Of a DNA stretch of 64,000 nucleotides, positions 5,717-59,928 are shown one piece after another (position 1 is the first letter of the stretch; each line of letters opens with the position of its first letter). A program made the position numbers and the translations under genes. The notes beneath the pieces are model-generated. The model was not told where the DNA came from, ran no database searches, and saw only the letters and a program-made list of their open reading frames with translations. Source of the DNA: Octopus vulgaris (taxonomy: Eukaryota); the NCBI GenBank assembly GCA_951406725.2, contig OX597842.1:16306001-16370000 (forward strand), in the 5' to 3' direction.

Positions 5717-5721
5717 GTGAG

Positions 5722-34048: not shown

Positions 34049-34251
34049 TCACTTTATGTCTAATAGACACAGAAGTGCAGTTAAAAATTGGGCTTTTTGA
34101 AGAGATTCTTTCAGTGTTTCAAATTTATTTGTGTCTGGATCACAACTTGTAACCCATCGGCACAGCATCTGGTAGCTTTGTTCTACAGTGTTCAAGGGAT
34201 AATCACACTCAATAATTTCCAGCTTAATAGAAGAAATCCCCAATAAAATCC
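34049..34251 (-). CDS. Terminal exon, death domain C-terminal part
   Basis: ttttgcag acceptor, phase 1; (G)ILLGISSIKLEIIECDYPLNTVEQSYQMLCRWVTSCDPDTNKFETLKESLQKAQFLTALLCLLDIK* fits the DD pattern LG..I..DYP...EQSYQML..W. Confidence 0.85.
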
Positions 34252-34796
34252 CTGCAAAAGATACAACAGTAAGAAATAACTGCAACAATAACAAAGATAT
34301 AGACGATGTGCACTGTAGGTTATTATAAAAAATAACGAAACCATATCAATAGAAAAACTGTTTAAATATACTTAAGAGACATGAAAACTTTAAGTTTTAT
34401 ATCGTTTGGATTTATGATGTAGAGAAGCGGAGGTGCAGTAATGTATTTCAACAACTATCTGAGACACCGAACGCCCTCTGTCGTCTTAATGATAGCGGTA
34501 CTCTTAATAAGAGTTCAACGAATCTATCTTTTAATCAGACAGGATTGGTAATGTTTATCAGCACAACAATAAGACAATGGCTTCGACTTCTTAGGATGAT
34601 GACAAAAATAAAGAGTTGAAACCAAGGATAAATATGGAGAAGAGATTTAAAAAAAAAACAATTGAAGATTAAATTTGAGAATAATTATGGTAAATAGATA
34701 ACAGAAATGTTTGTGTAGGCAATAGCATTTCAGAGCCTAAATAATCAAGGTAGACCACAAACAGTCACATCCGTTTATCCATCTATCTAGACAGCA

Positions 34797-34985
34797 AGCA
34801 TGCCGGACAAAATAACGCTAAGCATTTTGTCCAGCCTTACGTTCTGAGTTAAAATTCCGCCAGGGTTGACTCCACTTTTCATATTTCGAGATCAATAAAA
34901 TCAATACCAGTTGAGCACTGAGATTGATGTAATTGATTTACCCCTCCCCAGATATTGCTGGCCTCGTGCCAAAATTTGAAACCAA
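34797..34985 (+). mobile_element. Degraded SINE family B with alternative tail
   Basis: TTACGTTCTGAGTTAAAATTCCGCC...GCTGGCCTCGTGCCAAAATTTGAAACC. Confidence 0.65.
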
Positions 34986-35439
34986 TATTCCGAGAAAGTC
35001 ATCTTTCTTGCAGGGTCCTATGAGAAATAGCTATCTTTTCCCTTTCCTGTTGGATTCCCAAGTGCGACCGAGTAAGAATTTGGATATTATCCAACCATCT
35101 CATTCTTGGTCTACCCCTGGGTCTTCTCCCAGTTGGCTCCACTTCAAGAACCCATCTTGCAATTCTCATCACATGTGCATGTTAGCAGAGTTGTGACCAC
35201 TCAATGCATACAAGTAGCAACTTGACATGGTCAATGCCTACAATAGCCATGCGTGATGGCTCTCCTTCCTTCCATTATTAATATAACACAGTTAGGTACA
35301 CATTGCATATTATAGAAGACACTAGCTTAATCTCTCTGGATGCATGGTACATAATAATCTCTTCCACTGGATGAAGGCCTCCATTGAGCGAGAAGTCGAT
35401 AATGAAGTAAACCTGAAAATTAGAAATGTTTTAGTTAGC

Positions 35440-36350
35440 AGGAAAGAAGATATGACTCGCCAACAGTTACACCATTCATCTACGTACAATTAAACGTTTC
35501 ATGCGAGTGAAGTGTGGTCAAGTAGAAGGACACTGGACAGTTGAGAGGCTACAACATGACACTCAAAATACACAAAATACATGCAAATATCACCCAACAG
35601 GAAATGAACAGTGTGAAGTTGGACAGCTGTAGAACATTCTTGCCATTGCAAAACTCCAAATATGACACTTGAATTCCCAAATGCATTTTACTCCATCTGC
35701 TTCCATTTTGTGCATCTTTTAAAGCAATTCCGCACCAGAAATGGTCTATTTCTCCAGACAAACTCTAAATGAGACATCAGTTCCAATTTGGTTGAGTAAC
35801 CGAGGTTCTGTCTTTTTGTAATTCTGTGTACAGTACAAATATGATCCTTTGGTGGATGCGATTGAACTAATTGAATTAATTGAATCCACTCCTCACCAGT
35901 ATGAGCAGGTCTGAGTGAAAAGGTCGTGTAAGTAATGTCTCTCTGTGCAATCAATCACGTTGCAAAGTTCCTAAGAGGACACTGAAAATCGAATGATCAG
36001 TGATAGTTCAACAATCGATAATTCCGAGTCAAATTCAATCCCATTCCTTCTCCAAATATTTCTTCTGACCAATCCAGATTCGATCAATTCTACAGAGCCT
36101 ATTCAGTTACTATTGTCAGTCTCAATGAGAGATGCCACCTCCAGTTCGGCTTGACTTGTGAATGTTCATTTTCTGGTAAATTCCCTTAAAGGAATTCTCT
36201 GTTTTCGCCTGAGGAGAATGATACGATTTCGCTGTGTCACCTTTATTAAATCTCTTTTTATTGAAGCATTTACAGACATATGTCATGTGGTAAAGTCATT
36301 GCAAAATGGCAAAATAAATTGGAATTATCAGCTTCCAACACAATAACCCA
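35440..36350 (-). mobile_element. Decayed HERO/R2-like (restriction-like endonuclease) LINE fragments
   Basis: DITYTTFSLRP resembles the TSLRPD endonuclease motif, preceded by a CPL..GTLQ zinc-knuckle remnant. Confidence 0.45.
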
Positions 36351-36731
36351 ATAAATAATGGCTGCAAGAAGAACCAAACTCAAATTCTTCTGTTTGAATA
36401 AAGATTCTTTGTTTTAGATGTTAACTTTGGTACTTGTCCTTCATTACAATAACCTAACAGTGGACCTAAAGAAAATGTAAAACAAATTCACTCACCTGTT
36501 TACCCTTAAACAACATTTCTATTTTCTAGTTTATCCATTATTACCAACCAAGTTAATCTCAGTGGATATTTTATGAATTTACAGTAATATCGATATAATT
36601 AATGGAATTATTATAACCTATCAATTGGAAATTAGAAATGGAATCTGATCTCAGTCATTTTAACAAATAAAATAGCCCAAGGGAAAGTAATATTTATAGA
36701 AGCTAATTAGGTATTTTTATTCTATACTCAC

Positions 36732-36803
36732 CAATGTGCCGCCAATGTTTTCCTAACTTCTGAGCCACAGTCAGAAGATCTTTCTCCTCCAGCTTTGGAC
36801 CCT
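36732..36803 (-). CDS. 72-nt internal exon, death domain N-terminal helices
   Basis: atttattccag acceptor, GTGAGT donor, phase 1-1; (E)GPKLEEKDLLTVAQKLGKHWRHI(G) joins in frame to 34251. Confidence 0.88.
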
Positions 36804-36929
36804 CTGGAATAAATATTTCCAAGGTTAATAATTTCTAGTAATTCTTTTTAACTTTTTATAAAATTTATCGATGATTTATTATTGTGAGACATTGTTATCA
36901 TCAATGGTCGACTGGTGACCAATATCGCG

Positions 36930-37600
36930 AGGTCACTATTTTGATATCTTCTACAATTGTCCCATACTATCTTGTATGCTTCTGTCTTGTATGCATACCA
37001 GATTAAAAGTGCTCGTTCCACATACCCACGAGTCCCGGATATGCCAGCCCTCTGGAGCCTTTCAATTCCATAACCGTTATTCTGTAGATATATAACCGAT
37101 CTCTTAGAAAGTAAAATCATGTAAATTTTGCCATCTACATTCAAGGCTGAAGTTGGTCTGAACTGATCGATCGGTTCTGAATCAGCGTACTTTGGTAAGT
37201 AAACCTTTTCTACCTTGCACCAGTCATCAACCAGTCCATCTTTATGTCATAACTCTCAAAGTAATACCCATAACATAATTGTGTACGGTAAGTGTACACT
37301 TTGTACAGGGGTACTCTTTGCTCTTGTTTTTTTCACTCAGCTGTATCATCGTTTCTTGCTGAAATCACCAAGCTGTAATATTTGATTCCTAGTTTCGTTG
37401 TTCATTTCAAACCCTCCATGAATGGGAATCGTTGATCTCGTTTTGGGTCATTGTAAGTTTCCTCTATATTCCTGTCCAGTTCATCTTTACTGCATTTTAG
37501 CATGCTGCTCTTAGCATTTGCATACAGCTTCCCAGTAACTTCATAAGTGTTCTTAAGGAGCTTCTCTTTAATTTGTTTATTTCTTTTCTTCGTTCAACGC
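36930..37600 (-). mobile_element. Decayed HERO-like LINE RT fragment
   Basis: ILLSKRSVIYLQNNGY...LQRAGISGTRGYVERALLIW...IVWD resembles QKAGIPGFxGCLEH...IW...VVWLD. Confidence 0.6.
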
Positions 37601-39117
37601 ATCTGCTATTCGCATCAGTGAGAGGGGAACGTTTAATTTTGTTGAGGACATGACAATATTTCTAATAGGAAATGACTTGGACATGGGCCAGCCATCCAGT
37701 GGATGAGAGCAAGGAAACAAGATGATAACAGACTAGGATGGTACTGACCAAATTACTGGCACAAAGTTTAATAATGCGCATTGGTGCCTCTTCGAAATTT
37801 ATATTCAATGTCGCCAAATTACGGAGCAAAACTGAATGCAAAATGATTACCATACATTTCTGTATTGATGGGTGTCAATATTTTGGATTCAGAGGACTAT
37901 TGCGCATACACACCAAAACAGTGCGGGTGAATGTCACTAGGGGGTATGAAATTCATTACAAATAATGAAGGTGTGTATGCATGGATCTATTAGAGGGCAC
38001 CATATGCGCACCAGGGGACTTGATCCAATTATTTTCCATATTATTTGGAAAGTGAATGAACTACCGAGGAGGAGATGAGAAAATAAATTGAATGTTTGAA
38101 CGAATAAAGTTTGGATAAATGCATTCCTGGAGTCCAAGTTACATTCCCTTGTTTAATTGTTCACATGGTGAAGTGTAGGAATCGAAAATTGTCAACAATG
38201 ATATTTTTTCACCCTGAGCCATTTTCAGGAGCCTCTAAATGTTATATTATGCCTTGAGCATTATCAGTATGCTTACCATGGACAGATCAATCCTCAAAGC
38301 GAAAAAACGCACCACATGTTTTCTTTTATTTCATCATGGTCCAATGGGGATCCCTTGAATATTGATATTTTAAAACCTTTCTGCCCATGAAAATGTTCTT
38401 ATTTGAAAGTCCATTAACGTTAATATGGAGGAAGATAATAGAGGAATTCTGATAGCAGATTCTGGCTGATCTGATTGCAGATTACACGCTGTAGCCAATT
38501 TCAGACAAATATGAATAGTGTTAAAAGCGTTCAGCACCAAAATCGTATAAATTGACATTCGTGCTCCACGAGGGGTGTGATCCCCAATGTTTTGTAGGGC
38601 ATATCATTGAAACCCTTAGTGGTTGAACACTAAAATTATACATGTGTTCCTTATAAATATAGAGGTGTTATCAAAACCCATCTGAGCCAAATCTGAGTTG
38701 GTCAAGTGAAAAGTCTCTTCCTTTCAAATTTTGTTTGAATTCATACGGAATACTCCTAATGTAAAAATATTGGCTGCGAGAAATGGAAACAATATATTTA
38801 TTGACAATTGTGTCTACAAGATGGTTCTACTTGAAAGCAAAATATGTTTTTAAGCAAGCTTTACAAAATGGAATTACACATTTCATTTTTGGAAGAATTT
38901 CACATGATTTTAATTTTGGCTATACAGCAGAGGAAGTGTCTAGGAAGATGATGGGACAACAACAACATCAACAAATGAAATTTCAAAGTGTATTTTTATT
39001 TCCGCAGTTAATCTCTAACAACAAGGGAGACAAACTGAGAAAGGGATTTCCATGTAGTAGAGAGACCTGCTAGAATTAGTAGCCGAAACCTACTCAGTTC
39101 ACAACTTATCACCTTAA

Positions 39118-39706
39118 AGAAGGGCTTTAGTTGCCAGCAGAGGCGGCATCTCTCTGAATTTTGCCCAGCTATTCTTACTCCAGTCGCTACACGCTCAGAG
39201 CAACCATCCCCACTACAGACTTGGTAGCAGAAGCTATTAACTATTAGTTTCTTCCCCTGACAAGTGATGGAATCTGTTTTCTGTACATCTACAGTGTTTA
39301 TTGCCCCAGAGCATCTGCCACTTACGAAATATATTTTCCTGGTTAGCCTTCCTTTGATATTGCTGCACCTTTTACGCGTCCATAGCTTACACCGGGTACA
39401 TCGCGTGGAGTTTCTACCCTCTCCATTTCTACAGATAGAGCAGGGCCATCTACCTGAAAGGGGTTGTGATTTTACAACCTTCCTACTTACCACGACTTTG
39501 TTAGGTTAACTCTAAAGCCCTTCGATTCTAGACCTTGCTTCCACACCCTAAACTTTGTCTCCAGTTCTGGCAGTGACTCAACTATTAGACCAAGGTCATC
39601 AGCATAGAGGAGCTCTCAGGGGCAGCCTGTCTTGGAATTTCCCTGTTATTGCCTAGAGGACTATAATGAATAAGAGTGGGCTGAGGACTGATCCTTGGTG
39701 AACCCT
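39118..39706 (-). mobile_element. RTE-clade LINE fragment (RT + Cys-rich PHD-like insert)
   Basis: VHQGSVLSPLLFIIVL...LLYADDLGL and GRWPCSICRNGEGRNSTRCTRCKLWTRKRCSNIKG. Confidence 0.88.
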
Positions 39707-39984
39707 GATGTGTATTTTAAAGTGGAATGTTTCATTAAGTGTAGAGGATGTATGAAAACTGTTAAGAAATGAAGTGAGCATACTTCAGAAGAAGTGTAAT
39801 ATTAATGTGCTGAAGCCCCGGAGCAGAGTTTAGAAGATTTAGTGCACAAGAGAGGAGATGTAGAGATATGGGAGGAGTATGGAAGATAAAAGTTAGATAA
39901 AGAAGCGCCAGGAGATCCAAGTAGAAGAGAACAAGACGTTAAACCTGACAAAGGACGACAACAGCTGTGGGAGTAGTCTAATAT

Positions 39985-41095
39985 GAATGCAACAATCAAG
40001 TCAGAACTATAAACATAGGGAGAAACACTCGGGAAACTGTGCCTCTTTTAGCGTTAATATCATCTAAAATCTGACAAGTGTGAGAAAAAGAATGATTTTA
40101 TGGATGGTAAATGTTGTTCAAACAATGTAATAAGTGTATATTATATATAGTTACAAACAAGGATTTGTGAGATCAAGTCACACAGGGAACTCATGTTTTA
40201 TTCCTATCTTTATATTTTATGTCAACACCAATGTTTTTTTAAAATGTAAACAGATGTTCACGGTTCAATATTTAATTTAACATTTAGTAAAATTAAAATT
40301 AAGTTCATGATGAATATTCTTATACAGAGTTAAAATTTAATTATAATTTTCTAATTTGCAACTACAAAATGTATTCTAACCAGAGACATTCAGGGTACAC
40401 AACCCCCGAAAATAAAACATATTACGAGAGATATCTGGCTACATAACAACATCAAGAATAACCTATCAGAAAACTTACGAAAAATCTTAGTAGAAAAACA
40501 AACAACTATCTTATTAACTCACGAGTTTACACCTAAAAAATACATTATAGTTTCCTCTTCCAGAAGACAATATTAACTCTATTGTGGGTTTTAATTTATC
40601 CATTTTACCAAACATGTTAACCATGACTTTATGAAATTTCGGTAATATTTTTAATACAATTACTTTAGAGCTAACCTTTCAAATGGAAATTAGATATGGG
40701 ATTTGTTCTCCACCATTCTAATACACAAAATAGCTGAGGTGAATGTAAAATCTATAGAAATTAATTAAGTTCTCTAATTTTAAACTTATCAACTGTCTCT
40801 GCCACAGTCTGCACTCCCTTCTCTTCAAACTTTGGACTCTCTGAAATATGTGTCTCCAAGTTTTATATTTATTTATAGCACAAGTTCTTTATATTTATTA
40901 ATAATCTATATTTTATTAATGAGAAACATTCATACCATCAATGGCCAACCAGCGATCATAATTGTTTTGGTCAATATTTTTATACTTTCAACAGTGGACC
41001 CATGTAATAGCCAATATTTAGCTCCAAAACGAACTCTAGTTGATCTTTGTAAATTTCCCCTCTCTGTTAAGATATCCTACATAATCTAACAATGC
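39985..41095 (-). repeat. Intronic segment duplicated in inverted orientation at about 60995-62436
   Basis: 40020-40270 is nearly identical to the reverse complement of 62160-62410; weaker blocks 40440-40620 vs 61840-62060 and 40925-41095 vs 60995-61190. Confidence 0.9.
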
Positions 41096-41699
41096 TGTAA
41101 TTATATCACTTAATAACAGTTAATCTGTAGGTTTTGGTTTCCTTGCTTATATCTATGCCAAATCTATTGCATTTTCAAAACCCTGATCTTCACTAACAAC
41201 CTGTTTAATTCCAGTGTCAACAAATTTATTCATCAAAGATATAACAACAAACACATGTCACAACCACTTCAAGAAGGAGAAACATACACCTAATCTCTTT
41301 GTTAAACATTGTTGCTAATAATCTTTTAATTTTAACTTCACCTGGATAGAAAACATTGTTCTGGAAGAATGTACATTTAGAAACAGAGACCTCACTCTTC
41401 TGTCATACTTCTTCATAATCCTCACGTAAATTATTCATTTTTCGCGTGCAGGGGTGTGATTTCGAAGTCTTAGAATGCAGAACAAACAAAACCCTAACCC
41501 TAACACCAATCCTAAAGAATGTTTAGAGATATGCTGGAAATTTTACAGTTGAACGCCCAAATGAACCATTTTCAATGCTACAGAGACAATTCACTCCTGC
41601 GAAGCCAACTGAAGATTATGTGTCACGATGCTTCCCCTTTATTGATGGCGTCGTATATTTGTTCCTTAAATGTGACATCTTCTTTTCTACTACATTAAA

Positions 41700-43000
41700 T
41701 TTTTCTCCTCTTCTAATTTGGCTGACTACAGAACTTTGGAAAATTGCCACTGTTATTTCCTTATCCAAGAAGGGTATCAAAAAAGGTGACCACTTAACAA
41801 CTACCAATTATTGTCCAATCAGTTTCATTAGCTGCCTCATCAAATTTATGGTGTTCTGTGACAGGGAGATACTTTGAAGAATCTGGAATTCGCATAACCT
41901 TTTTCCATCCTCACAATTTAGATTTATCCCTAATTCTAGCTGCTGTAACCAACTCACAGAATTTCTTCAAGACAATCACACAAATAACATATTGTGGCTG
42001 TTGGGTAGATGTTATTTATCTCGACTTCACCAAAGCCTTTAATTCTCTGCCACTCAAACGAATTATGTTGAAGCTGTCTGATTTTTGGGTGAGGTTTAAT
42101 TTACATAAATCTCTGATGTCGTTCATTCTTGCTTAACAAGAAGTAGTCACAACGTAAAGATACTATAGAATCACACCTGGAGATTGGTAGGATCTGTTTT
42201 AGTCCATTGTTGTTTCTGGTATGTATTAATTTAATTGATGCCAAACTGAAGCAGGTTACTCTACGCTACAGATCATTGCTTCAGCCTCATCTGGACATTT
42301 TGCAGCAAGGTGCTGTCTAAGTTAAGCTAGTTGTAGATAGGTGCACCACTATTCATTATGGGAGGTAAACTCAGAATTTACCAATTTCCTCCACTACACC
42401 CAACTTCAGAAGTCTACTGGTGAACTGGACCTCGGGATTAATGTCAAGAAGGACATTTGACGGATGATTCACATTCCTAAAGTCATCAAAAAGATCGAAA
42501 GTATCTTAGCATCTCTCTGAAGACGCTTTGTCTTGCACTTTGTCAAGTTGTCTATTTAAAGTTACGTATGGGAAATGGTATGTCAAAACTTACGGTACGC
42601 ACCTCCAATCTGGAACCCCATCCTGTCTAGAATATTACGTAAAACTAGGCAAATACACCCTGTCACGCAACATATCTTGAATGCATTGCTTCTCTTGGTA
42701 TCATCTGAGTACATTAAAATTTGGATGTCTAACAGCTGACTCAGTGGAATCCCACAAGAATATCCACCATCTTCCCAACAACAATTTTGGTAATCGTTTT
42801 GAAAGCAATTTCTCTAACACCAGCAGACATGCTTATAACAAAGAGAAAAGCAGTGCAGCACCCATGACTTTCAGAAATATTTTTCGCTGATCAGAATTTT
42901 TGAAGCATGAAATAAACTGATATCTCTTGTTAGCTATCAGGACACTGCTTTCTTCAAAACTTCCATATTTCCTGAAAATCCCTAACACTCTTCCTGATGT
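41700..43000 (+). mobile_element. Decayed CR1-type LINE ORF2 3' half
   Basis: WKIATVISLSKKG..KGD...TNYCPISFIS; VDVIYLDFTKAFNS; DLGI and PIWNP remnants. Confidence 0.82.
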
Positions 43001-43304
43001 ACCTATGTCTTCTTTCTTTGATAAAACTCTTTTACTGTTTCCCTCCTTTCGGGTTGTTTTATTAAATGTATTGTGCATCTACTTCTTGCTTCCATTGCTG
43101 CCTTTCTTTGACTAATTGCAGTTTTCTGTCCCCTATTTTGCCCCTTTCCAGTAACTTCAGCTGCGCTCTATAGACATTATATTATTATTACAACATTCAC
43201 ATAAACGATCATTTGTAAAAGTAGAGAAAATCTTCTGAGGCTTGTCAATTGAAGAACACAGAACTATATTTATACAGTCCAAAAATCAATATCTATGAAC
43301 AATA

Positions 43305-43698
43305 GGCACAGGGGTAGATGTGTGGTAAGTAGCTTGCTTACCAACCACATGGTTCTGGGTTCAGTCCCACTGCGTGGCACTTTGGGCAAGTGACTTCTAC
43401 TATAGCTTCGGACTGACCAATGCTTTTTGAGTGGATTTGGTAGAGGGAAACGGAAAGAAGCACGTCACATATATATATGTGTGTGTGTGTGTGTGTGTTT
43501 GTGTGTATATTTGTCTGTCTGTATTTGTCCCTGCACCATCGCTTCACAACCGATGTTGGTGTTTTTACGTTGCCGTAACCTAGTGGTTCGGCAAATAAGT
43601 ACTAGGCTTACAAAGAATAAGTTCTAGGGTCGAATTCTTTTGACTAAAGACGGTGCTCCAGCACGGCCGCAGTAAAATGACTAAAACAAGTAAAAGAG
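43305..43698 (+). mobile_element. SINE family A
   Basis: Full head-microsatellite-tail structure. Confidence 0.88.
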
Positions 43699-44410
43699 TA
43701 ATATTTGAATTTCAACAGACAAAGAAAGTTTTGTATATTCACTGAGGGGGAAATGTGTCTGCTTCTTAAGTAGCTAATACAGAGAGATGTAAGGCAAAGA
43801 AATTGCCAAATCTTATAAAATACGGGAGTGAAAGGCGACTAAAACACCTAGTAATGGTATATGTGTTACTTGAATTATTTACGTTTCCTGGCAGTTTTTT
43901 TTCTTCTATGAAGATATGTGGCAATATTCCATCAGTATCTGCAGAAATATAATATATACACTGTTGGTGTGTGTTTGTAGGTTATTTTTCTACGAAATCA
44001 TTCTTAATATTGACTGAATCGGACTTAGAAGAGTGAGAAAAAGTTGTTGGTAGACAGATAAACTCCATTTAATTCTAAGTAACAGTTTCAAGATGGAATT
44101 CATTCACTTCATTATTTAGATCTATATTTTCCTATTGATCACAAATCTTTAAAATAGGGAACGAAGAGAGGTAGGTGGTGATGGACAGTGAAGTATAAAT
44201 GTCAACACTATGAATCATGTGAATGTAATCAAAATCATGTTCTTTCTTTGATCTCCTGACAACTGCATATTGTTTATTGTGTGGCCTTTGACAAAGACAC
44301 TAGCGACAGTATAATGTATATCGTAGAATTGAAACGAAATAAACATATAAATATGATTATATACAAAATAGGAAATGTACTGGTTTATCCGTTCCATAGC
44401 CAGGAAATAC

Positions 44411-44590
44411 TTAATGTGGTTGTAAAAATGTTTCTAAGTTTTTTCTCAAATTTGGGTCCTTAATGAGGTCCAATGGTCTGTTATTTTTGTTGTTTTTATG
44501 GTGAAAGTCAGCTCCCTGGGTGGCGAGATATCTCACAACCACTATACCAGAGAGACTTCTTTTCTTTTTTAGGTTGGTGGCAGTGCAGCA
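44411..44590 (-). CDS. Last ankyrin exon, reading into TAA at a mutated donor
   Basis: tatttgtag acceptor, phase 0; CCTATNLKKKRSLSGIVVVRYLATQGADFHHKNNKNNRPLDLIKDPNLRKNLETFLQPH*. YLATQGAD..KN....PLDL resembles the last ANK repeat of mind bomb proteins. Not in the ORF track. Confidence 0.85.
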   Translation of the reverse strand, partial: CCTATNLKKKRSLSGIVVVRYLATQGADFHHKNNKNNRPLDLIKDPNLRKNLETFLQPH

Positions 44591-46242: not shown

Positions 46243-46445
46243 TTCGTTTAGTACATCCATGGGTGCATCCTTGGAAATAAACACTTCTGTTTTCACAGCA
46301 AGGTGCAAACAGCTGTTACCGTCACCATCAACAGCATTTATGTTTGCACCCAGGGCTATTAACCTGTGTATCATTCCGAGGTGGCCCCTGGAAACGGCTT
46401 CAAGCAACAGTGTCATTTTCTGATTGTTCTTCAATTCTGATTTCA
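46243..46445 (-). CDS. Ankyrin-repeat exon
   Basis: ttcag acceptor (phase 1), GAA|GTAAGT donor (phase 0); KNNQKMTLLLEAVSRGHLGMIHRLIALGANINAVDGDGNSCLHLAV. Confidence 0.9.
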
Positions 46446-46630
46446 CTGAACCCTTTTGTGGAGGTAAAAATAGAAAATGAAAATTTACATGAAAATCCAG
46501 GTGAATATCAATGTGTCGTTATTTTCTTCTACTGTATACTTTGATCAAACTGATCAGATACATTTGCTGTCTGTCGATAAAGTTAACCTTCATGATGTCT
46601 TCTATAATTTGCTCTGTGTATTTGTTAGAT

Positions 46631-47830: not shown

Positions 47831-48185
47831 TCTTTGATTGATCTGTTAAATATTAATATCATTAAGGTACCAGTGAAATAATGAGGGTAGGTTTAATCAC
47901 CTGTATACTATCTTACTTGTTTCAGTCATTTGACTGTGACCATGCTGGAGCACCACCTTTAGTCGAGCAAATCGACCCCAGGACTTATTCTTTGTAAGCC
48001 TAGTACTTATTATATCGGTCTCTTTTGCTGAATCACTAAGTCGATTTGTTCGACTAAAGGTGGTGTTCCAGCATGGCCACAGTCAAATGACTGAAACAAG
48101 TAAAAGAGTATACAGGTGATTAAACCTACCCCCATTATTTCACTGGTACCTTAATGATATTAATATTTAACAGATCAATCAAAGA
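47831..48185. repeat. Fold-back inverted duplication (arms about 145 bp) of a SINE A tail plus unique flank
   Basis: TCTTTGATTGATCTGTTAAATATTAATATCATTAAGGTACCAGTG... mirrored by ...CACTGGTACCTTAATGATATTAATATTTAACAGATCAATCAAAGA. Confidence 0.9.
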
Positions 48186-48272
48186 GGCATCTTAGGCAAG
48201 TGTCTTCTGCTATAGCCCCGGGCCGACCAATGGCTTGTGAGTGGATTTGGTAGACGGAAACTGAAAGAAGCC

Positions 48273-48315
<43 letters not shown>

Positions 48316-48527
48316 GTGTGTGTTTGTGTGCCTGTGTTTGTCCCCCCTAGCATTGCTTGACAACTGATGCTGGTGTGTTTATGTCCCCATAACTTAGCGG
48401 TTTGGCAAAAAGAGACTAATAGAATAAGTACTTGGATTACAAAGAATAAGTCCCGGGGTCGAGTTGCTCGATTAAAGGCGGTGCTCCAGCATGGCCACAG
48501 TCAAAATGACTGAAACAAGTAAAAAGA
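48186..48527 (+). mobile_element. SINE family A, 5' truncated
   Basis: Body and tail match the family. Confidence 0.85.
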
Positions 48528-49189
48528 AAGAAAAAGAAGAAAAAAGATATATTTATTCACTACACACTCTACACAGTACAAAAATGATATATACACACCT
48601 GAATAAAAACAGGAATGTATATATGGTACAATGAACAACAGTTATATAAATATGAAATTTAGGGAGGAAAGAAGGGCTATAGATAATTGTATGGACCCCA
48701 TTACATGACTGGTATTGCATTTTATCAACCTTGCAGAGATGGAAGGACAAGTCGATCTTGGGAGGATTTGTACTCAGAACATAAAGAGTCATCAATAAAT
48801 ACCACAAGGTATTTTGTCCAACAGTAATAAGACACAAGAACCAGAGAGGGGAGGGAGAACAGTTTATTGCATAAACTCCTGGATATTACTGGTACAGATT
48901 ATAATGACACCAGAGTGGTAATAGATACTCTGGCAAGATTTGAACATGGAACATAAAGAAACAAATGTAAATACTGAATGGGTGTGATTCTCTATTTAGC
49001 CCAGGGTCAGAGGAAAATGTGAAATTACAAGAGCGAGAGAGAGAGAGAGAGAGAGAGATGACAGTTTTACATGGGATGAACAGAAGAGAAGGAAGGGTTT
49101 GAACCTGTAACGTTGAGGTAACGGAGAATGAGATGACCAGTCAAGAAAGAACAACGGCAAAAACTATGGTGATGATTAATTAAAGTAGA

Positions 49190-49729
49190 ATCAAAATCAA
49201 ATTCGATGACTGGCATCCGTGCTAGTAGGGTGCAAAGAGCACCATACGAGTGTGATCGTTGACAGAATGGCTAACCGGCTTCCATGTCAGTGGCACATAA
49301 AAGGCACCATTCGAGTGTGATCGTTACCAGCATCGCCTTACTGGCACTTGTGCCCCGTGCTCGTAGGGTGCTAAGAGCACCATCTGAGTGTGATCGTTGT
49401 CAGTGTCGCCTTACTGGCCTCTGTGCTGGTGGCACATTAAAGGGCACCATTGGAGTGTGATCATTACCAGCGTCGCCTTACTGGCACCTGTAACGGTGGC
49501 ATGTGTAAAAAGATTCGAGTGAGGTCGTTCCTGACTGGCCCCCGTGCCAGTGGAAGGTAAAAACACCCACTACACTCTCGGAGTGGTTGGCGTTAGGAAG
49601 GGCATCCAGCTGTAGTAACTCCGCCAGATCAAGATTGGAGCCTGGTGCAGCGATCTGGTTCGTCAGTCCTCAGTCAAATCGTCCAACTCATGCTAGCATG
49701 GAAAGCGGATGTTAAACGATGATGATGAA
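49190..49729 (+). mobile_element. Retroposon with internal about 60-bp tandem units and a (GAT)n tail
   Basis: Repeated GCACCAT..GAGTGTGATCGTT units; ends CATGCTAGCATGGAAAGCGGATGTTAAACGATGATGATGA. Confidence 0.7.
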
Positions 49730-49882
49730 GTAGATTACAGTGACATTACAGTGTGAAAGAGGGAAGAAGAACAACCCCATGGTGGGATTATGGTAGGAAT
49801 GACTCATTGAAAAAATGCGACAAACTTTATTGAAAGTGCAAAAGAAACAGATTTGGATATTCCAGAATCGAAAGGGACTTAC

Positions 49883-50025
49883 TTTCAAACAGCCAAATGT
49901 AAGGGTGTGTCACCATATTTCTCCCCAATATTGGCATTAATGCCAATGTGAATTAACAACAGGCCAACTATGTATGTGTAACCAGAACTACAGGTGTAGT
50001 GTAAGGAGTTATCTCGTTGGTTCAC
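49883..50025 (-). pseudogene. Disabled ankyrin-repeat exon
   Basis: VNQRDNSLHYTCSSGYTYIVGLLLIHIGINANIGEKYGDTPLHLAV* then AA|GTAAGT; the polypyrimidine tract ends in CGG rather than CAG. Confidence 0.8.
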
Positions 50026-50283
50026 CCGAAGAAAAGAAGAAAAAAAATAGTAAAAATGGTGTTGGAAAGGGAGGAGAAAAATTATGAGGTCCATGTCTTT
50101 TAAATGAAAGATGTCAAAAGAGAAAATAAAACAATTTTTAAAAAACTCCTAAAATGAGGTAAACAACAATATACAGAAGCTGATGGTTCTAAATCTTGCA
50201 TAAGATAACAAAAATATTGGAAACTTCAGTTTATCTAAAGTATTGTTCACAGCTGAATGTTCTTCTTGACACTAATAAACCAA

Positions 50284-50445
50284 GGCACAGGAGTGGATGT
50301 GTGGTAGGTAGCTTGCTTACCAATCACATGGTTTCACGTTCAGTCCCACTGCATGGAACCTTGGGCAAGTGTCTTCTACTATATCCACAGGCCGACCAAA
50401 GCTTTGTGAGTGGATATAGTAGACGGAAACTGAAAGAAGCCCGTC

Positions 50446-50494
<49 letters not shown>

Positions 50495-50693
50495 CATGTA
50501 TGTGTGTGTATATATGTTTCTATGTCTGTATTTGTCCCCCAACATCGCTTGGCAACCAATGCTGGTGTGTTTACGTCCCCGTAACTTGGTGGTTTGGCAA
50601 GAGACCGATAGAATAAGTCCTGGGGTCGATTTGCTCGACTAAAGGCGGTGCTCCAGCATGGCCGCAGTCAAATGACAGAAAGAAGTAAAAGAG
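50284..50693 (+). mobile_element. SINE family A
   Basis: Full head-microsatellite-tail structure. Confidence 0.88.
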
Positions 50694-50714
50694 TAACAGT
50701 CACTGCGCTGTGTC

Positions 50715-50950
50715 TCTTATTTTTTTACTGCCGACAAGGGGCTAAATATAGAGGGGACAAATAAGAACAGACAAAGGGATTAAGTCGATTACATCAACCC
50801 CCAGTGCGTAACTGGTACTTAATTTATTGACCTCGAAAGGATGAAAGGCAAAGTCGACCTTGGCGGAAATTTGAACTCAGAACGTAACGGCAGACAAAAT
50901 ACTGCTAAGCATTTCGCCCGGCGTGCTAACGATTCTGCCATCTTGCCACC
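50715..50950 (-). mobile_element. SINE family B
   Basis: Reverse complement of the family B consensus. Confidence 0.88.
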
Positions 50951-51307
50951 TTGGTTAGCTACATTACTCTGCTTATTACAGTTCGATTGGTTACAGTTAA
51001 ACCCTGAATGCTGGAATGTGCTCTGTTGATCACTGTACATCTTGAGCTATAAATCTGTGGATCATTTCCCAGCTGGGTGGAGACACATTACATAAATAAA
51101 AAATTGATTCTATAAAGAAAAGTTAATTAATGAAAAATAACAAAAGAATCAATGGAAAATTGAGTTTGTACAATAAAACCTCCGGTATTGGTCTTTGGTT
51201 TGATCTCATCTGCTTTGTTACTATTAAGATTCACTCTATCAACAAGTGGCTACTTTATATAGTTTTGCAAATATCTTTATGACTATTTCATAATTAATCA
51301 ATTTCAC

Positions 51308-51352
<45 letters not shown>

Positions 51353-51432
51353 ATATACACACACACACACTCACACAAATATATATATACACTCACATAT
51401 ATATACACACACACATATACACACACACATAA

Positions 51433-51473
<41 letters not shown>

Positions 51474-52093
51474 TATATACACACACATATATGTATATAC
51501 ACACACATATCTATATACACACACATACACACATATATATACACACAGACACATATATATACACACACACACATATATATATATATATACACACATACAT
51601 ATATATATTCACACACATACACATGCATATACACACACACACATACATATGACAAGAAATAATTTTTACCGCCTTTTATAGAGATAAAGAGGGTTTATAA
51701 GTCTGCAGAAAGGAAGTGCTCAAGTGTAATTGAGACAGAGAGAGATAAAGAAACATCGATCAGAGAAGAAACATGAAATTCGAGTCAACAACTTTATACA
51801 TAACACCGTCTCTTATCAAACATTTGATCATATCTAAATACTACCCTGGCCTTTAAACATATAAAAAGAATACATATACCAAAAAAATACAGAAGGTAAA
51901 AAATATACATGCAAATAAAAATACAGATATATAGAATGGCTTGACAAGAAGGTTTATATAATTGACTAAGAATTCTAAAGTGTGTCGTGCGACTAAAAAC
52001 CCAAATAAAATATCAATTGACTAAAAAGATTTTTTTATTCCCCTCAAACAAAAAAAGAAGAAAGTCAAAATAGTTCATTTCATAAAAACCATG

Positions 52094-52290
52094 GGGTACT
52101 ACTTGAGAACAGTGGTCCCGGTGCGCGCACTCGCATTAGCTAGTCATTACTAGTCGATCCTTACTTTGTGTTTTTGAGTTTTGTTTACTTTGCTTTAAAA
52201 AAATATTTATTTTGTCTCCGTGCTAGCTAGTCGTGACTAGTCGATCATACAACGACTTCCTAGAAAAGTAAATAAAACACAAAATAAATA
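52094..52290. mobile_element. Partial/rearranged copy of the GGTAC-TIR MITE
   Basis: GGGTACTACTTGAGAACAGTGGTCCCGGTGCGCG and GCTAGCTAGTCGTGACTAGTCGATC. Confidence 0.75.
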
Positions 52291-52321
52291 ATTTTTTGGA
52301 TCTTTTCGGTTTGAACGGCAG

Positions 52322-52798
52322 TTTTTTGTAGCGGTGTCATATGAAATTGTCACCCATAATTATGACCCTAGTATCAATCTGTTGCATTTCAATCTGTTTT
52401 AGGGTTAGGGGTGGGTGGAAGGGTATCTTTTTGTTCAGAAATGTAAATAAATAGGCGCAAGAGTGGCTGTGTGGTAAGTAGCTTGCTGACTTACCACATG
52501 GTTGTGGGTTCAGTCCCATTGCGTGGCACCTTGGGCAAGTGTCTTCTACTATTGAGAAAAGTCTGTATGTTGTAGGATATTTCGACTTTAATTTCGAGAA
52601 TTTCAGCAATTTTAACATTCCGTTCTGTATGAATATGTCCCTCGTTTAAGAACAGATTGAAGAAAAAAAGATACCCTTCCCCCACCCCTAACCCTAGCCA
52701 TAACTCTAAACCTAACCCTAAAATAGATTGAAATGCAATAGATCGATACTAGGGTCATAATCATGGGTGACAATTTCATTTGACACCGCTAGAAAAAA
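52322..52798. mobile_element. Inverted-repeat element with TTAGGG-like inner motifs and an inserted SINE A head
   Basis: TAGCGGTGTCATATGAAATTGTCACCCAT...GGAAGGGTATCTTTTT mirrored at 52662-52798; partial copy at about 15265-15330. Confidence 0.8.
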
Positions 52799-52814
52799 TC
52801 CCATTTTCCGTGGG

Positions 52815-52855
52815 GAGGGGATAGATAAACAGAGAGGGAGATAGATAGAGAGAGG

Positions 52856-52925
<70 letters not shown>

Positions 52926-53350
52926 GAGAGAGAGGGAGATAGAGAGAGGGGGAGATGGATAGAGAGAGAGGGAGATAGATAGCTAGAGAGAGACGGAGTT
53001 GAATAGAGAGAGGGGGGATAAATAGATAGAGAAAGAGAGAGAGAGGCAGTTAGATAGATAGAGAGAAGGGGAGATAGATAGATAGAGAGAGAGGGAGATA
53101 GACAGATAGAGAGAGGGAGATAGAGAGAGGGGGAGATGGATAGAGACAGCGGGAGATAGATAGCTAGAGAGAGAGGGAGATAAATAGATAGAGAGAGGGG
53201 GAGATAGAGAGAGAGAAAGACAGATAGAAAGTTAACGAGATAGATAGAGAGGTAGATAGAGAGAAAGAAAGACAGATAGATAGAGAGACAGACAGATGGA
53301 TAGAGAGAAAGATAGAGAGAGAAATAGTATGTAAATAGATAGAGAGACAC

Positions 53351-53422
<72 letters not shown>

Positions 53423-53442
53423 ATAGATAGAGAGAGAGAGAG

Positions 53443-53485
<43 letters not shown>

Positions 53486-53650
53486 GTATGTAAATAGATA
53501 GAGAGAGAGACACAGATAGATAGATAGTTAGAGAGAGACAGATAGATAGAGAGAGAGACAGGTAGAGAGAGAGATAGAGAGAGAGGCAGATATATGAATA
53601 TATAGAGACAGATATAGATAGGTAGGCAGAGAGGCAGGCAGAGAGACATT
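52815..53650. repeat. (GATA)n/(GA)n compound microsatellite
   Basis: Directly visible; contains an internal duplication GAAATAGTATGTAAATAGAT. Confidence 0.95.
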
Positions 53651-53839
53651 TAAAAGCATGGATGTCAGTGTATATACAAATTAATCTACGTTCGTGATTT
53701 CATCAATTTGTCTGTTTATGTCTGGGTAACGAATCTCTATGTTGCATTGTAACAGTAACAATAATATATAAACATGCATCTATCCACCTATCCATACACA
53801 GATACGTAAGCTCTATCTTATGACAAGATATAAGACAAG

Positions 53840-54316
53840 AAAAATCTTTACCTTACCGAAAGACAGAATATTTCCAGGTGTAGGACTCCCAAAAGCCATT
53901 TCAGTCTGGCTCTGGTTCGCGCGGATGAATAAATTGTATTCAGTTCTTAAGAATATATTTAATCTTAAGCAGGAGGTCATTCAGGGCAGCCAATAAAGCG
54001 ACTCATTGTATTTTCTCTTTGTTGGTTGCCTTTCATTCTTATCTCTCAATATTCTGTCGCCCTTTCACTCACACGAATTTCTGAAATTAAAGCTGTGACC
54101 TAGTTTTACCCTAATTGTCCAAAGAGCTATGTGTATATGTAGGGGTGTGACAGAGAGAGAGGAAGAGAGAAAGGGTGGGCAACACCTACGCATGTTGATT
54201 GTATATTATTAACCCATTGAAATCGTTTTGGATTTCGTGAGCAATAAAAGCCGAACACATTTTGTTGTTAAAGGCGCGTTGCGGTTTTATTGGCCAACGT
54301 CTATGCATTGTAGTAA
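53840..54316 (-). other. Candidate first exon/promoter block of the ANK-DD locus
   Basis: Upstream of the ANK exons on the same strand; G|GTAAGG donor at 53857/53856 conserved in the 13-kb paralogue; optional ATG at 53899 (MAFGSPTPGNILSF). Confidence 0.4.
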
Positions 54317-54437
54317 CATGAACATACACACACACACACACACACAGACAACACAATTCACACACAGACATACTTATGTATTATGTATATATAGATACGT
54401 GTGTGTGTGTGTGTGTGTGTGTGTGTATTATACATGC

Positions 54438-54643
54438 ATGGCAGAAACGTTAGCAGTCCGGGCGAAATGCGTAGCCGTATTTCGTCTGTCGTTACGTTGT
54501 GAGTTCAAATTCCGCCGAGGTCGACTTTGCCTTTCATCCTTTTGGGGTCGATAAATAAAGTACCAGTTACGCACTGGGGTCGATGTAATCGACTTAGTCC
54601 CTTTGTCTGTCCTTGTTTGTCCCCTTGTGGGCAATAAAGAAAT
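54438..54643 (+). mobile_element. SINE family B
   Basis: GGCAGAAACGTTAGCAG...CCCCTTGTGGGCAATAAAGAAAT. Confidence 0.88.
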
Positions 54644-54838
54644 ATATATGTATATATATGTGTGTGTGTGTATTTAATAATATAAGGGTAAATAATTGTT
54701 AATTTTAAAAAACCAACATTTATTCCCGGGTAGATTTCGGTATGTAAATATAACTATTATCGGTAGGAACTTTTTTTAAAAATTATATATATATAAAAGA
54801 GCAAGCAACAGGTTGCTTAGCCACATACCGAAAAAATT

Positions 54839-54966
54839 AGAAATAGCTGTCAAAGACCGTTTATTTCTATTTTATACAAATATAACTCCACATATAACTC
54901 CATATACATGTATGTGGAGTTATATTTGTATAAAATAGAAATAAACTGTCTTTGACTGCTATTTCT
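54839..54966. repeat. AT-rich near-perfect palindrome (possible small MITE)
   Basis: AGAAATAGCTGTCAAAGACCGTTTATTTCTATTTTATACAAATATAACTCCACAT mirrored on the right. Confidence 0.85.
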
Positions 54967-55197
54967 TTACCTAGAAATATTTGAAGTATATTCACAAGAA
55001 GAGAATCTTTATATGTTTTTAAAGAATCTCAAAAATAGTTGATAAATTTGAAAGAAAGAAAACGTTTGGGATTTTTATATTTCAAGGAAATTCAAAATTT
55101 GTGAATCAATTTTTCCTGAAATAAAAAATATAAACCTTGTCTTCTTCATATACTTTAATTTGATCTATACAATAAATCTCTGCCTTCAGCTAAAAGG

Positions 55198-55310
<113 letters not shown>

Positions 55311-55373
55311 GGGGCGTGTAAGGAAAATATAAGATAGAGAATTCTAAAATAATTTTCAGCCTTTGAGACTGTA

Positions 55374-55652
55374 GGCGTAGGAGTGGCTGAGTGGTAAGTA
55401 GCTTGCTTACCAACCACCTGGTTCCGAGATCAGTCCCACTGTGTGGCAGCTTGGGCAAGTGTTTTCTCGGGCCAAACATGTACATATTTACGACGGGGCT
55501 TCCTTCAGTCTCCGTCTACGAGATCCACTCACAAGGCTTCGGTCGCCCGAGGCTACAGTAGAAGTCACTCGCCCAAGGTGCCACCCAGTGGGACTGAACC
55601 CGGAACCATGTGCATGGTACGCAAGCTACTTAATACACCGCTAACCCCGCCT
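55374..55652. mobile_element. Two SINE A 5' fragments in inverted (tail-to-tail) arrangement
   Basis: Plus head 55374-55470; minus head 55490-55652. Confidence 0.75.
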
Positions 55653-56084
55653 ATATTTCGAGAGTTATCTCCACTTACTTGCCATCTCCTATCCGACCTT
55701 TAATCTACTTCCGGCAACAGAAAATTTGAAATTAATTGGGACCCCGGGTACGTTGCTACCGTTCAAAACTAAACTGAGGTAAGGCATTTTAATTTCATTT
55801 GGGGCCATTTAACGCTTCAGTGAACATCCTTTCATCTTAAACTCTGTCTGTGTGTCTATAAATTAATGATACGATATTAATTATCGTAAATGTGCGTGAT
55901 CCAATTAGGAAATTAATGATTTTGTTTTTCGTTATGAAACTTACAAGGGTGTGGCCGCTTTGTTGGGGGACAGAGATGGAGGTAACACAGAGTAGGGTCT
56001 CTGTTAAGTCAGCCTGAAATGGTAGGGTTTTGTGTATATGTTTTAACAAGGGTGGATTTCTGCGCTGTGGAAACTGGATACCAT

Positions 56085-56283
56085 TTAATTAAGAAGAGTG
56101 GCCCTGGTGCGCGCCCTCGCGTACTCGCGCATCCGCGCTAGCTAGTCGTGACTAGTCGATCCTACAACGACTACTTAGCAAAGTAAATGAAACACAAAAA
56201 CACAAAGTAAAGATCGACTAGCTAGCTCGGATGCGCTAGTACGCGATTGCGCGCACCGGGACCACTCTTCTTAGGTAGTACCC
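56085..56283. mobile_element. GGTAC-TIR MITE copy (left end damaged)
   Basis: High similarity to 12735-12930; right TIR CACCGGGACCACTCTTCTTAGGTAGTACCC. Confidence 0.85.
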
Positions 56284-57199
56284 TATAAATTAATGTGTGT
56301 CTATAAATTAAATATGTGTGTGTAAAAGTGATAAAGTCAAGTTTCATGTATTTAGTGTCTGTAACTGTAACTCCCTCCCACTCCTTTTGCTGTTTTAGCT
56401 TTCTTTCTGACCTGTCCATAAATTGTCTTTACAACTTCCACACTTCCGAACTTCAAATTGTAAACCCAGTGTTTATTTCAATGCCTCCGCTTCCTCCCTC
56501 TGTTATTTTTCTTTTAGCCTATGTTATTAAGTCTGCTATGCGTATGTATGCATGTATGTGTGTGTATAATATATACTAGCAGTCCCCTGGCCTTTGTCTC
56601 GGTGTGTAGTGTACACAAATGTATTCATAAAACATCTTTCGTAATGCTTATGTATTAAGATCTTAGTTAAAAATTACTAGTCGATACTCTTCACAAGAAA
56701 AAGTTCTACATTCCAACCTTAAGTAAACACACACACACACATAAATTTACAGTAAACAAAAGACGAAGACAGGTGAGGGCACAACAAGAAGGTGTATTAG
56801 TTTGACGCTCGGGAAAAAATGGGGAAGTCTTTGATGTTTAGAACCTACGCTCTTCGACAGAAAGGATTGAAAGGGGAAATGGAGTGGTCAATGCAACGAT
56901 CACACGCTACTCACCTTCCTTCCAAGCACTGCCGTGGGCAGTAGAAGTAAGCTAGAACGTTTAAACTTAGTGCACATGCACAACAGTGTTCACACGGTCA
57001 ATCTGTGCCAAGCGGATTTACTCTGCATGCTTTAGCTTTGTCACTATGACTACAGTCCTGATTCCTATTGATCAGACCACATATTCTGCGGCAACAAAAT
57101 AATTAAAACCAACTTGAAAGAGTAGAAAATTTGGTGCAGTAAGAAGAGCAGATAAATAAGGCCATCAGAGCGAGAGAGGGAGCGGAGGTGTAGATATGC

Positions 57200-59100
57200 T
57201 TCTGTTGGCATTACAGAATTGCAAGATTAAATTCAGCAGATATGATGGGATTTGGTCTCTGCAACAGTGAAGATGGTACATTCGGATGTTCGACAGTGAA
57301 ATTGCCAGCACAGAATTCTACAACAAGCCCCCAACTATATTCTTTGGAATCTTTATTAATCCGAGTTGTTGGGATTTCAAAAAGGGCTGACTGGAGTATG
57401 AGGCCCCATGTTTTGAACATACTTCCAAAATGACTCTCTATTCCCATTGGTTACCATTTGTTGTCTAAAATTTAAGTACTGCCCTTTTTAGTCACGTGCT
57501 TCATATGGATTGATGCTCTTTTGCATCCCCTTTTCAATGTAATCAGTATTCGCATTCAGCATCTCTTCGATCTTTCGTGGCGAAGTGGGCTGCTATAGTT
57601 TCCCATGGGGCTTTTTAACGAGTTTAATGGTTATTGATGCTTAGTATGTGACCCTCAATCAATTAAGGATGTGCTGACGGTTAGCATTGACATCTCCAGA
57701 ATTGTAAACTTGAAACCAATGATGGCACTAAAAGACTCTGCAATAGGAGTTCCAGTCCGCATTGTTCCAGTACAAGCAAAAAGTTTGGGGGTTTTGGTGT
57801 CTTCTTTCTATCCTTTAGATATAGATTGAAATGATTGGCGCATGATTAGAGTCACCTAAATAGACCTTGGTAGTGAGGCTGATGACAATTTCATGAGCAG
57901 TGAGTAAATAACATATCCAAAGTGTTGTTACGTCTTATGGAAGAGTTGATTAATTGGGGTCAGTTTGAATCCAACACAAGATCAAGGAAATCAATTTCCC
58001 TTCGGGATCCGTGAAAGTTTTCGAAGCCAAACTCTGGTAAAAGGAACTAACCAGTAAGAAATCATAGGTGGCTTTTCTTTCATAGATGCAGCTCCAACAA
58101 TGTCAAAAACATGGTAGCTTGGTGGGTGGTCGCAAAAAATACCTCCTGTTACGACTGCTTTGAAACTTCACAAGGAATTTCTGAAAACCTTGAGTAAATA
58201 GAGACTACCACACCGCACCATGGTAATTAAATGATATTTGTGAAGCAAAATGTAGCTTGCCATGCTGAAAATACCATTGCAGTGTAAGGAATGCCTCAAG
58301 GTTTAACTGTTGTGAGATCAGAACTGATACTTTTCAAGTGACAGTTAAAACAAAGACGAACTTTATTGCATGAACTATGGACATTTATAAACAATAATTT
58401 GTATCTCGATTTAAGCCTATCATGATTCATAGAAGAGGATGTATTGTTCTTGTTTAGCTTCCTGTGGTTTTCCCATTATTGCACATTGTTCAATATCCTC
58501 AGACCAAATCGCATCACTTTTCCACGTTGTGTAGAGTCTTGATACAAAGGAGCTACAATACATATCCTCAGGTGATATATAAGGATGAAACCAATATGCA
58601 ATTTTATTTTCATATTTAGCATTATCAGAGGCTAAACCGTATGCACATACCTGAGAAGGAGGTTTAATCTAAATAGTCTGAGTTTTGATCCAATCAACGG
58701 AGGTAGGGGACATATTTTGGAGGAACACAGTTAAAGTGAACAAGTTGTAAGAAAATAGTTGTAGATCAATGAAAGCTTCAGCCATACGAATGAAGATAGC
58801 ATCATGTCTGTCAGCTTCAGTGACTTTCTCAATGGGCCTGGATTCAGCTCTCACTAGGGGCAAGTTTGTATGCTGGGAATTCTGTTATGATCCTTCATTT
58901 TCTGTAAAGATTCTTGCGTTTAATATCCTTTAGAACAAATGTCCGAAATTTCCCCGTGCATGGTCAGATTTTGGTTGGCAAAAATCGTAGGAGAAGATAC
59001 GTGAGTCAGGCACTGAAATGACCAATACGGTAGTTGGACCATTTCCTCCAGTCCTTCAATGATAGGACCATTATGTACCTTCTATTGGTCTGCGATCATC
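57200..59100 (-). mobile_element. Decayed Gypsy pol region (RT/RNase H/integrase remnants)
   Basis: Fragmented minus-strand translations resemble pol (RPIEKVTEAD, YHLRIC, integrase-region CKF); many stops. Confidence 0.5.
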
Positions 59101-59785
59101 TTGAGGTTATTGCTACATTAATGCCAGATACAGATATAACGGTTACTGCATTCAACCCATCTATTTGAAATGTGTTCTCAAATTATGTACACATACACAA
59201 ACACACACACTTTTATGTATTAAAGATGATTTTCAAGGCATGGTTCTATTTTAAAACTATGACTTGTTTTGTTACATAGTGTATCTATAAAGAAAGCCAT
59301 GGCAATTGTGTTCTCTCTGCCTATCTATAAAATTTGAAATCAAATATCAAAGTATAGAACGCTTGTTAAATAGATTAGATGCAATAAAGTATTTGTTATA
59401 TACACATATAAGAAAGTGTAATTACACAAATGAACTTGTGTTCATTCATGTGTTTATTCAGAAGAAATGGAGTCTATGCTAGAATTGAAGTATATTTCTT
59501 CAATATATGTATCCCATTGTGTTTTTGCAATTTTAGACATGTGTCACAGTCAATCATATATTTATCAATATGTGTATAATTAAATATATATGCGTTTGCA
59601 TGTGTGCTCTGTTCATACACATACAAATCTGTTTGAATGTAATTGTTAAAATAAATCTCTTTCTAATGTAGTCTTACTCATCATTGTAATGTCTCGTAAT
59701 ATTCTCTATTCTGAACAGGTACACAATGTAATCCTTATTATAAATGAAAATTATTCTCAGGATGTGTTTATATTTTGTTCCACAG

Positions 59786-59928
59786 ATGTACATATTGTCA
59801 AGTGATGTATGCCTCTTCCGAATTCAAGCACTGTGAACATATAGCCCTATGTCGTGATTGTTATATTAGAATTAAGTGTGAATCATGCCCCACTTGTCAA
59901 CAGCCAATAAGTGGTGTGAGAGAATTTG
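59786..59928 (+). CDS. Intact C3HC4 RING-finger exon (mind bomb/IAP type)
   Basis: ttttgttccacag acceptor, G|GTAAGA donor, phase 2-1; CTYCQVMYASSEFKHCEHIALCRDCYIRIKCESCPTCQQPISGVREF = C-x2-C-x11-C-x-H-x3-C-x2-C-x8-C-x2-C. Not in the ORF track. Confidence 0.88.

Follow-up and report, generated by a model that had tools for sequence, protein, structure and literature searches.

On a 64,000-nucleotide stretch of the Octopus vulgaris genome (C29:16306001-16370000, hereafter the window), exons encoding ankyrin repeats (ANK), a RING and a death domain (DD) lie scattered over both strands, which raises the question of what gene or genes they belong to. The original prediction was that a single ANK-RING-DD gene is split here over two inverted paralogues. 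From searches that covered the 2.8-Gb genome we find instead that the window contains two copies that were broken separately and belong to different sublineages of a gene family for which the ANK-RING-DD architecture is normal.

The five exons on which the original prediction was built are all present and open in the frames proposed for them, and splicing them in silico gives a joined frame free of internal stops. The lengths and phases hold as well: the last ANK exon (176 nt) ends in phase 2, although its donor is TT, the RING exon (143 nt) is of phase 2-1, and the two DD exons measure 72 and 203 nt with the phases claimed. Only the start of the penultimate ANK exon has to be moved, from 46445 to 46452, which makes it a phase 0-0 exon of 210 nt that matches its paralogues. 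The expected Pfam domains were recovered in part, with Ank_4 on 46243-46443 (E 7e-13) and zf-C3HC4_3 on the RING exon (E 2e-7), but Death on the last DD exon fell just below the cut-off (E 2e-4; 21.6 bits vs 22.6). The last ANK exon alone and DD exon 1 alone were assigned no Pfam family.

The gene family and its kinship with Mind bomb 2

Searches for homologues gave 59 and 79 proteins, or 107 distinct ones with isoforms included, and both terminal ANK exons, the RING and the DD occur together in 68 of the 107. Most members carry the NCBI name 'MIB2-like'. In the genome, the second DD exon (DD2) has at least 130 matches (150 of 151 candidates were scored) and the last ANK exon has 103, of which 85 are followed within 60 kb, on the same strand, by a DD2 match, mostly on C29 and C31. 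Paralogues and possible transcripts join the three domains, as had been anticipated: contigs from three runs presumed to be RNA cross the ANK-to-RING and RING-to-linker joints at the edges of the RING exon, and the joint from linker to DD exon 1 at GT..AG, although the matching was done at 90% likeness, so that paralogues may be the source of these joints; intronless copies on C1 likewise contain all three. Lesions in the exons checked affect 8 of 52 gene sets.

The suggestion of a lineage-specific, expanding family is thus borne out as regards expansion. As to range, all species names that can be read among the homologues, a few being truncated, belong to Octopus (vulgaris, sinensis or bimaculoides), but searches of this kind rely on words in common and on deposited data, and do not establish absence from squid and cuttlefish. 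A full-protein search of 50%-identity representatives was dominated by long ankyrin proteins and is uninformative on range, and a full-protein search of the PDB likewise gave generic matches. In the literature open without subscription we found no description of the family; supplements of cephalopod genome papers might list the expansion.

The origin of the family can be sought in a gene at C26:2.51-2.57 Mb that encodes two MIB_HERC2 domains, and which we take to be MIB2 by its ankyrin motifs and its two RINGs. Its last two ANK exons and its RING1 exon correspond to those of the family, have identical phases (0, 2 and 1) and score 75, 65 and 57 bits against the family profiles. In the exon that follows, of phase 1, a coiled-coil-like stretch is encoded together with the terminal RING, and at that position the family has phase-1 mini-exons and two DD exons. 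Relative to MIB2 (MZM-REP-ANK-RING1-coiled coil-RING2), the family thus lacks MZM/REP and the terminal RING, and differs in its mini-exon linker, its DD, its roughly 100 copies and a variable ANK face. No MIB_HERC2 was found among the Pfam hits of the family homologues, and none of the 10 MIB_HERC2 matches in the genome lies inside the C29 or C31 clusters. The last ANK and RING exons of MIB1 were not found in the 90 kb examined. Exon structure and profile scores together indicate that the family is derived from the 3′ half of MIB2.

This derivation bears on whether the proteins are E3 ligases, as had been proposed. Human MIB1 ANK-RING1-2 lacks ligase activity and the second RING of MIB2 corresponds to RING3 (10.1101/2024.03.01.582834); MIB2 mutated in its first RING still ubiquitylates cFLIP (PMC7815719). 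The RING is indeed present in the family, but it corresponds to RING1 of MIB2, and none of the 107 proteins contains two RING motifs. Among the paralogues, 40 of 44 RINGs could be parsed (one of them out of register), and 6 of these 40 have Asp at the His ligand. Residues equivalent to the E2-contacting P993/I994/R996 of MIB1 occur in 8 of the 40 and are absent from the window's RING, which has no arginine after its last cysteine. By these comparisons the family appears to have kept a dispensable RING1 and lost the catalytic terminal RING, and because of this an adaptor seems more likely than a ligase. Outside MIB2, a MIB2-type terminal RING was seen at one other locus among those examined (L109; C27:36.356-36.360 Mb, minus strand), where a DD-less ANK-RING1 arrangement is accompanied by such a RING (77% identity) with no coiled coil. 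This locus may be an intermediate that retains the catalytic RING.

Several further observations concern the distribution and forms of the family. C31 (12 Mb) holds 42 of the 130 DD2 matches and 41 of the 103 last-ANK matches. At C1:216.93-216.97 Mb (L113), intronless and stop-ridden ANK-RING-linker-DD copies are repeated in tandem about every 3.5 kb and are likely to stem from a retrocopy that was amplified afterwards. At C30:5.122-5.129 Mb (L111, minus strand), nine or more RING exons of the same type as that in the window form a tandem array, some of them shortened. A second subfamily is represented by P0030 and P0215, of C29 type; here the arrays of near-identical ANK repeats are longer, and several repeats apparently share one exon.

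Ankyrin face, exon cassettes and linker

We analysed the two N-terminal ANK exons using the best 30 of 98 and the best 30 of 42 matches, which left 28 and 29 sequences after duplicates and one stop were dropped. As binding-face positions we took those randomised in DARPin libraries, fixed from the repeat consensus. At these positions pN/pS is 2.28 and 2.79 in the two exons, and at the remaining codons it is 0.47 and 0.54, an excess with permutation p of 0.0014 and 0/20000. Allowing omega above 1 in a site model improved the fit by 141 and 254 for these exons, whereas the gains for the last ANK exon and DD2 were 9 and 14; this model is our own grid version, and recombination can inflate such gains.

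Exon types were compared in 52 gene sets, which include 50 of the 85 pairs above; they lie mostly on C31 and omit most of the distal C29 cluster. Among the 43 genes with a last ANK exon, a RING and a DD2, there are 27 type combinations. Pairs with near-identical RINGs have distant DD2 exons in 74% of 130 cases, vs 1% of 114 for DD1-DD2. Lineage switch points can be located on contiguous DNA, several of them within linker introns. ANK, RING and DD cassettes have thus been reshuffled between copies. A single recombination hotspot was considered and rejected, as a 300-nt element found at some crossovers is absent from many genes. Positive selection on the ANK binding face and clustered, recombining copies, two of the signs to be expected of a diversifying recognition repertoire, are both seen in this family.

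The linker between RING and DD has a repeated feature of its own. A loose LC8-type motif occurs 43 times in 3,545 linker residues and never in 18,067 others (shuffled mean 0.43), and is present in 30 of the 59 proteins that could be parsed out of the 107. Each motif is encoded on its own phase-1 mini-exon, and the mini-exon resembles DD exon 1 with its flanks. A complex of two LC8 chains and two 32-residue peptides holding the motif of the window's plus-strand copy was modelled with a score of 0.73, vs 0.50 for the best control, and with contacts on the motif; agreement of contacts between runs was at least 96%, and the partner pLDDT passed the mark of at least 55 (56-57). In calibration, 51 of 78 solved pairs and 2 of 108 mismatched ones attained the score mark for microbial proteins, and for eukaryotic proteins the figures were 39 of 65 and 2 of 126; this calibration does not extend to peptides. 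LC8 binding by the linker motifs is thus predicted; the octopus LC8 gene lies at C25:23.627 Mb. The family resembles multivalent LC8/DYNLL clients in its repeated D/E-K-x-V-Q-T motifs within a low-complexity linker and in the predicted groove binding, and is unlike them in placing each motif on a separate phase-1 mini-exon.

At the C-terminus, the DD profile matched the RIPK1 and Fas death domains in the PDB (E about 1e-5), with RIPK1 as top match, and PIDD at E 0.04-0.06. PF00531 is precomputed on many family members, and Death clusters of the Atlas were matched at 0.90; an ANK-RING-DD cluster was not found in the Atlas, which holds only clusters of at least 50.

The two copies in the window

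The features of both copies are listed in Table 1. In the minus-strand copy the RING has been deleted, three splice sites are dead and there is one in-frame stop, and this copy is a pseudogene. The 3.4 kb that carry the RING exon in the paralogue at C31:9.93 Mb are absent between 41341 and 41618, and the RING-less junction (41287-42930) is spanned without differences by a contig of run X1. The copy is also a chimera of two sublineages. The segments 33929-40188 and 49073-50084 are 93-95% identical to a pseudogene at C10:6.652 Mb, in which both pieces adjoin, while the ANK block between them is 89-95% identical to a different sublineage. The degenerate ANK exon itself is 93% identical to this sister pseudogene, and the DD side of the intron element is 95% identical to it. 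No exon-exon joint of the minus copy is among the 15 joints listed (329 others lie outside this list), which we do not take as evidence on its expression.

Table 1. Positions of the family's exons and related features, in window coordinates
Feature	Position	Strand	Remarks
Death-domain exon 2	34049..34251	-	Includes stop codon; intact
Death-domain exon 1	36732..36803	-	Phase 1-1; intact
Intron element of linker units	39979..40300	.	Lineage switch point of minus copy
Linker mini-exon	40790..40840	-	51 nt, phase 1-1; LC8-type motif; donor mutated to AT
RING deletion site	41342..41617	.	Relative to paralogue C31:9933735-9937145
Last ANK exon	44415..44590	-	Phase 0-2; donor mutated to TT
Penultimate ANK exon	46243..46452	-	Phase 0-0; open; homologue of same MIB2 exon
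Degenerate ANK exon	49883..50025	-	Acceptor CGG not CAG; 12-nt deletion; in-frame TGA at end
Start of plus-copy homology	58479..59785	+	To nearest complete paralogue, C9:78-93 kb; inside ANK-RING intron
RING exon	59786..59928	+	Homologous to RING1 of MIB2; phase 2-1; zinc ligands complete (eight)
Linker mini-exon 1	61250..61300	+	No QT motif
Linker mini-exon 2	63495..63545	+	LC8-type motif; probably spliced to DD exon 1 past window end
Plus-copy DD exon 1	68188-68259 (window-equivalent)	+	Past window end
Plus-copy DD exon 2	69829-70028 (window-equivalent)	+	Past window end

Upstream of the RING of the plus-strand copy, no ANK exon was found on that strand within the window or the preceding 10 kb. 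A third mini-exon of this copy lies past the window end and has a doubtful acceptor. In O. sinensis, ANK-less RING-DD isoforms are annotated (P0231-P0233) whose RING is identical to that of the plus copy over the annotated part, orthology being judged here by protein identity alone; a short linker-DD protein may therefore still be a product of the plus copy.

The original prediction had also pointed out that the RING exon is followed by an intron sequence which, in the minus copy, lies between ANK and DD. The common sequence is real (39979-40773 vs 62441-61669, 79%; 40749-41094 vs 61341-60997, 66%; a 278-nt core is 94% identical), but it is one unit of the tandem array of linker mini-exons and no sign of where this RING once stood.

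Elsewhere in the window, positions 3705-6063 (minus strand) contain frameshifted reverse transcriptase frames with a second frame upstream, presumably LINE-type and gag-like, respectively. Thirty-three copies of a 131-nt CT-rich unit (19278-23685) are followed by about 470 CTTT units (24134-26006). Short palindromic elements at 52091-52284, 56090-56286, 54839-54966 and 47831-48185, two of them mutually related, are possibly MITEs. Positions 1532-1844 (minus strand) are 78-90% identical to the annotated N-termini of P0001 and P0002, which are unlike the N-termini of other members, and are probably a repeat that was absorbed into these two gene models.

Candidate function and its alternatives

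By its sequences, the family is neither Mind bomb by definition nor an NLR (NOD-like receptor), and seems to work like a diversified family of sensor-adaptors. We lean, by a narrow balance, towards the view that intact members are cytosolic sensor-adaptors in which the ANK face binds a ligand, LC8 pairs the chains and the DD recruits an adaptor. The variable ANK face would bind its ligand, presumably non-self; LC8 would pair two chains through the linker motifs, with RING1 as a structural spacer; and the clustered DDs would seed a signalling complex and recruit a DD adaptor such as FADD or CRADD, with output to caspases or NF-kB. FADD and CRADD are present in a cephalopod (PMC11463336). We infer ligand, adaptor and immune role by analogy with fungal ANK-type NLRs such as Podospora Pa_3_8560 (PMC4986451), which similarly have a selected ANK concave face, combinatorial domains and a signalling domain in the same chain; unlike them, the octopus family shows no NACHT/NB-ARC, has a C-terminal DD, and is shuffled between intron-bounded cassettes. 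Among look-alikes in the Atlas, ANKDD1A/B (ANK and DD) and the plant XBAT ligases (ANK and RING) each have two of the three domains. RIPK1, Fas and PIDD1 share the likeness in DD profile, and PIDD1 also a sensor-DD design, but the family has no kinase, transmembrane segment, LRR or ZU5. More tentatively, one could picture around 100 germline receptors without an NTPase switch, made from the non-catalytic back half of MIB2, a Notch ligase, whose DARPin-like variable ANK face would read pathogen proteins, whose spliceable LC8 mini-exons would tune pairing, and whose shuffled cassettes would link new specificities to different signalling outputs.

Several points weigh against the sensor-adaptor proposal. 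The family appears to have no NTPase switch, as no NACHT/NB-ARC was found among the Pfam hits of the homologues. The LC8-type motif is missing from 29 of the 59 parsed proteins, its pattern was set after the sequences had been seen and is looser than the published consensus (PMC3078936), its hits are of one common origin, and the model may have passed through likeness to solved LC8-peptide structures. To these come the possible inflation of the site-model gains and two observations that also speak for rival explanations, namely a Pro-hydrophobic-Cys-Arg motif in some RINGs and the pN/pS within types.

The former would suit the view that intact members are E3 ligases with activity, whose variable ankyrins bind substrates and whose DD brings them to death-domain complexes. 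Most members retain a RING that scores as zf-C3HC4_3, LC8 pairing could stand in for the lost coiled coil, and human MIB2 ubiquitylates RIPK1 (PMC5912950), the top PDB match of the DD. The motif, which could mark active RINGs, is found in 8 of 40 parsed RINGs but missing in the other 32, and 6 of the 8 have Asp for His; the retained RING is the one that is inactive or dispensable in MIB1/2; and MIB2 binds RIPK1 through MZM (PMC5912950), which the family does not have, so that we regard active ligases as unlikely. That the proteins are decoys, or serve recognition outside immunity, as in self or neuronal identity, reproduction or the damping of DD signalling, is rather improbable in our judgement. 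Surface diversification is also a mark of self-recognition genes, and the ANK-less isoforms of O. sinensis would be in keeping with such roles, but the overall pattern is that of immune receptors of ANK type in fungi (PMC4986451), and birth-and-death within clusters, accompanied by shuffling, would be typical of host-pathogen conflict.

There is little to recommend the idea that the family is mostly neutral and arose as a side effect of unequal recombination within clusters rich in repeats. It would account for the broken state of both window copies, the decayed intronless copies and the RING-exon arrays, and pN/pS within types is 0.69-1.09 (0.69-0.84 for ANK and RING, 0.9-1.1 for DD), which means that recent copies are weakly constrained. 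However, only 8 of the 52 gene sets have a lesion in the exons checked, pN/pS between types is 0.45-0.67, conservation of the framework ANK codons contrasts with values above 2 for those of the face, and members occur in three Octopus species. Finally, that one ANK-RING-DD gene was split, inverted or misassembled at this place, which takes in the reading with which the locus was introduced, is hardly credible. The exons agree in phase and can be joined in an open frame, but such agreement is common to all members; the pieces come from three sublineages, each copy has its own DD, and an independent contig crosses the RING-less junction. We rejected a single split gene: the window's ANK type occurs in 16 paralogues, never together with the window's type of RING, and the likeness between the two DD2 exons is no more than 64%.

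The window's two copies are thus broken examples of a family whose genes are concealed under the label 'MIB2-like E3 ligase'. Little is known of the means by which cephalopods recognise intracellular pathogens. If the sensor-adaptor proposal is true, Octopus would possess a large, variable receptor repertoire of traceable origin, in which a single exchange of exons converted the tail of a ligase into a death-domain adaptor, and the family would amount to a natural library of ankyrin binders.

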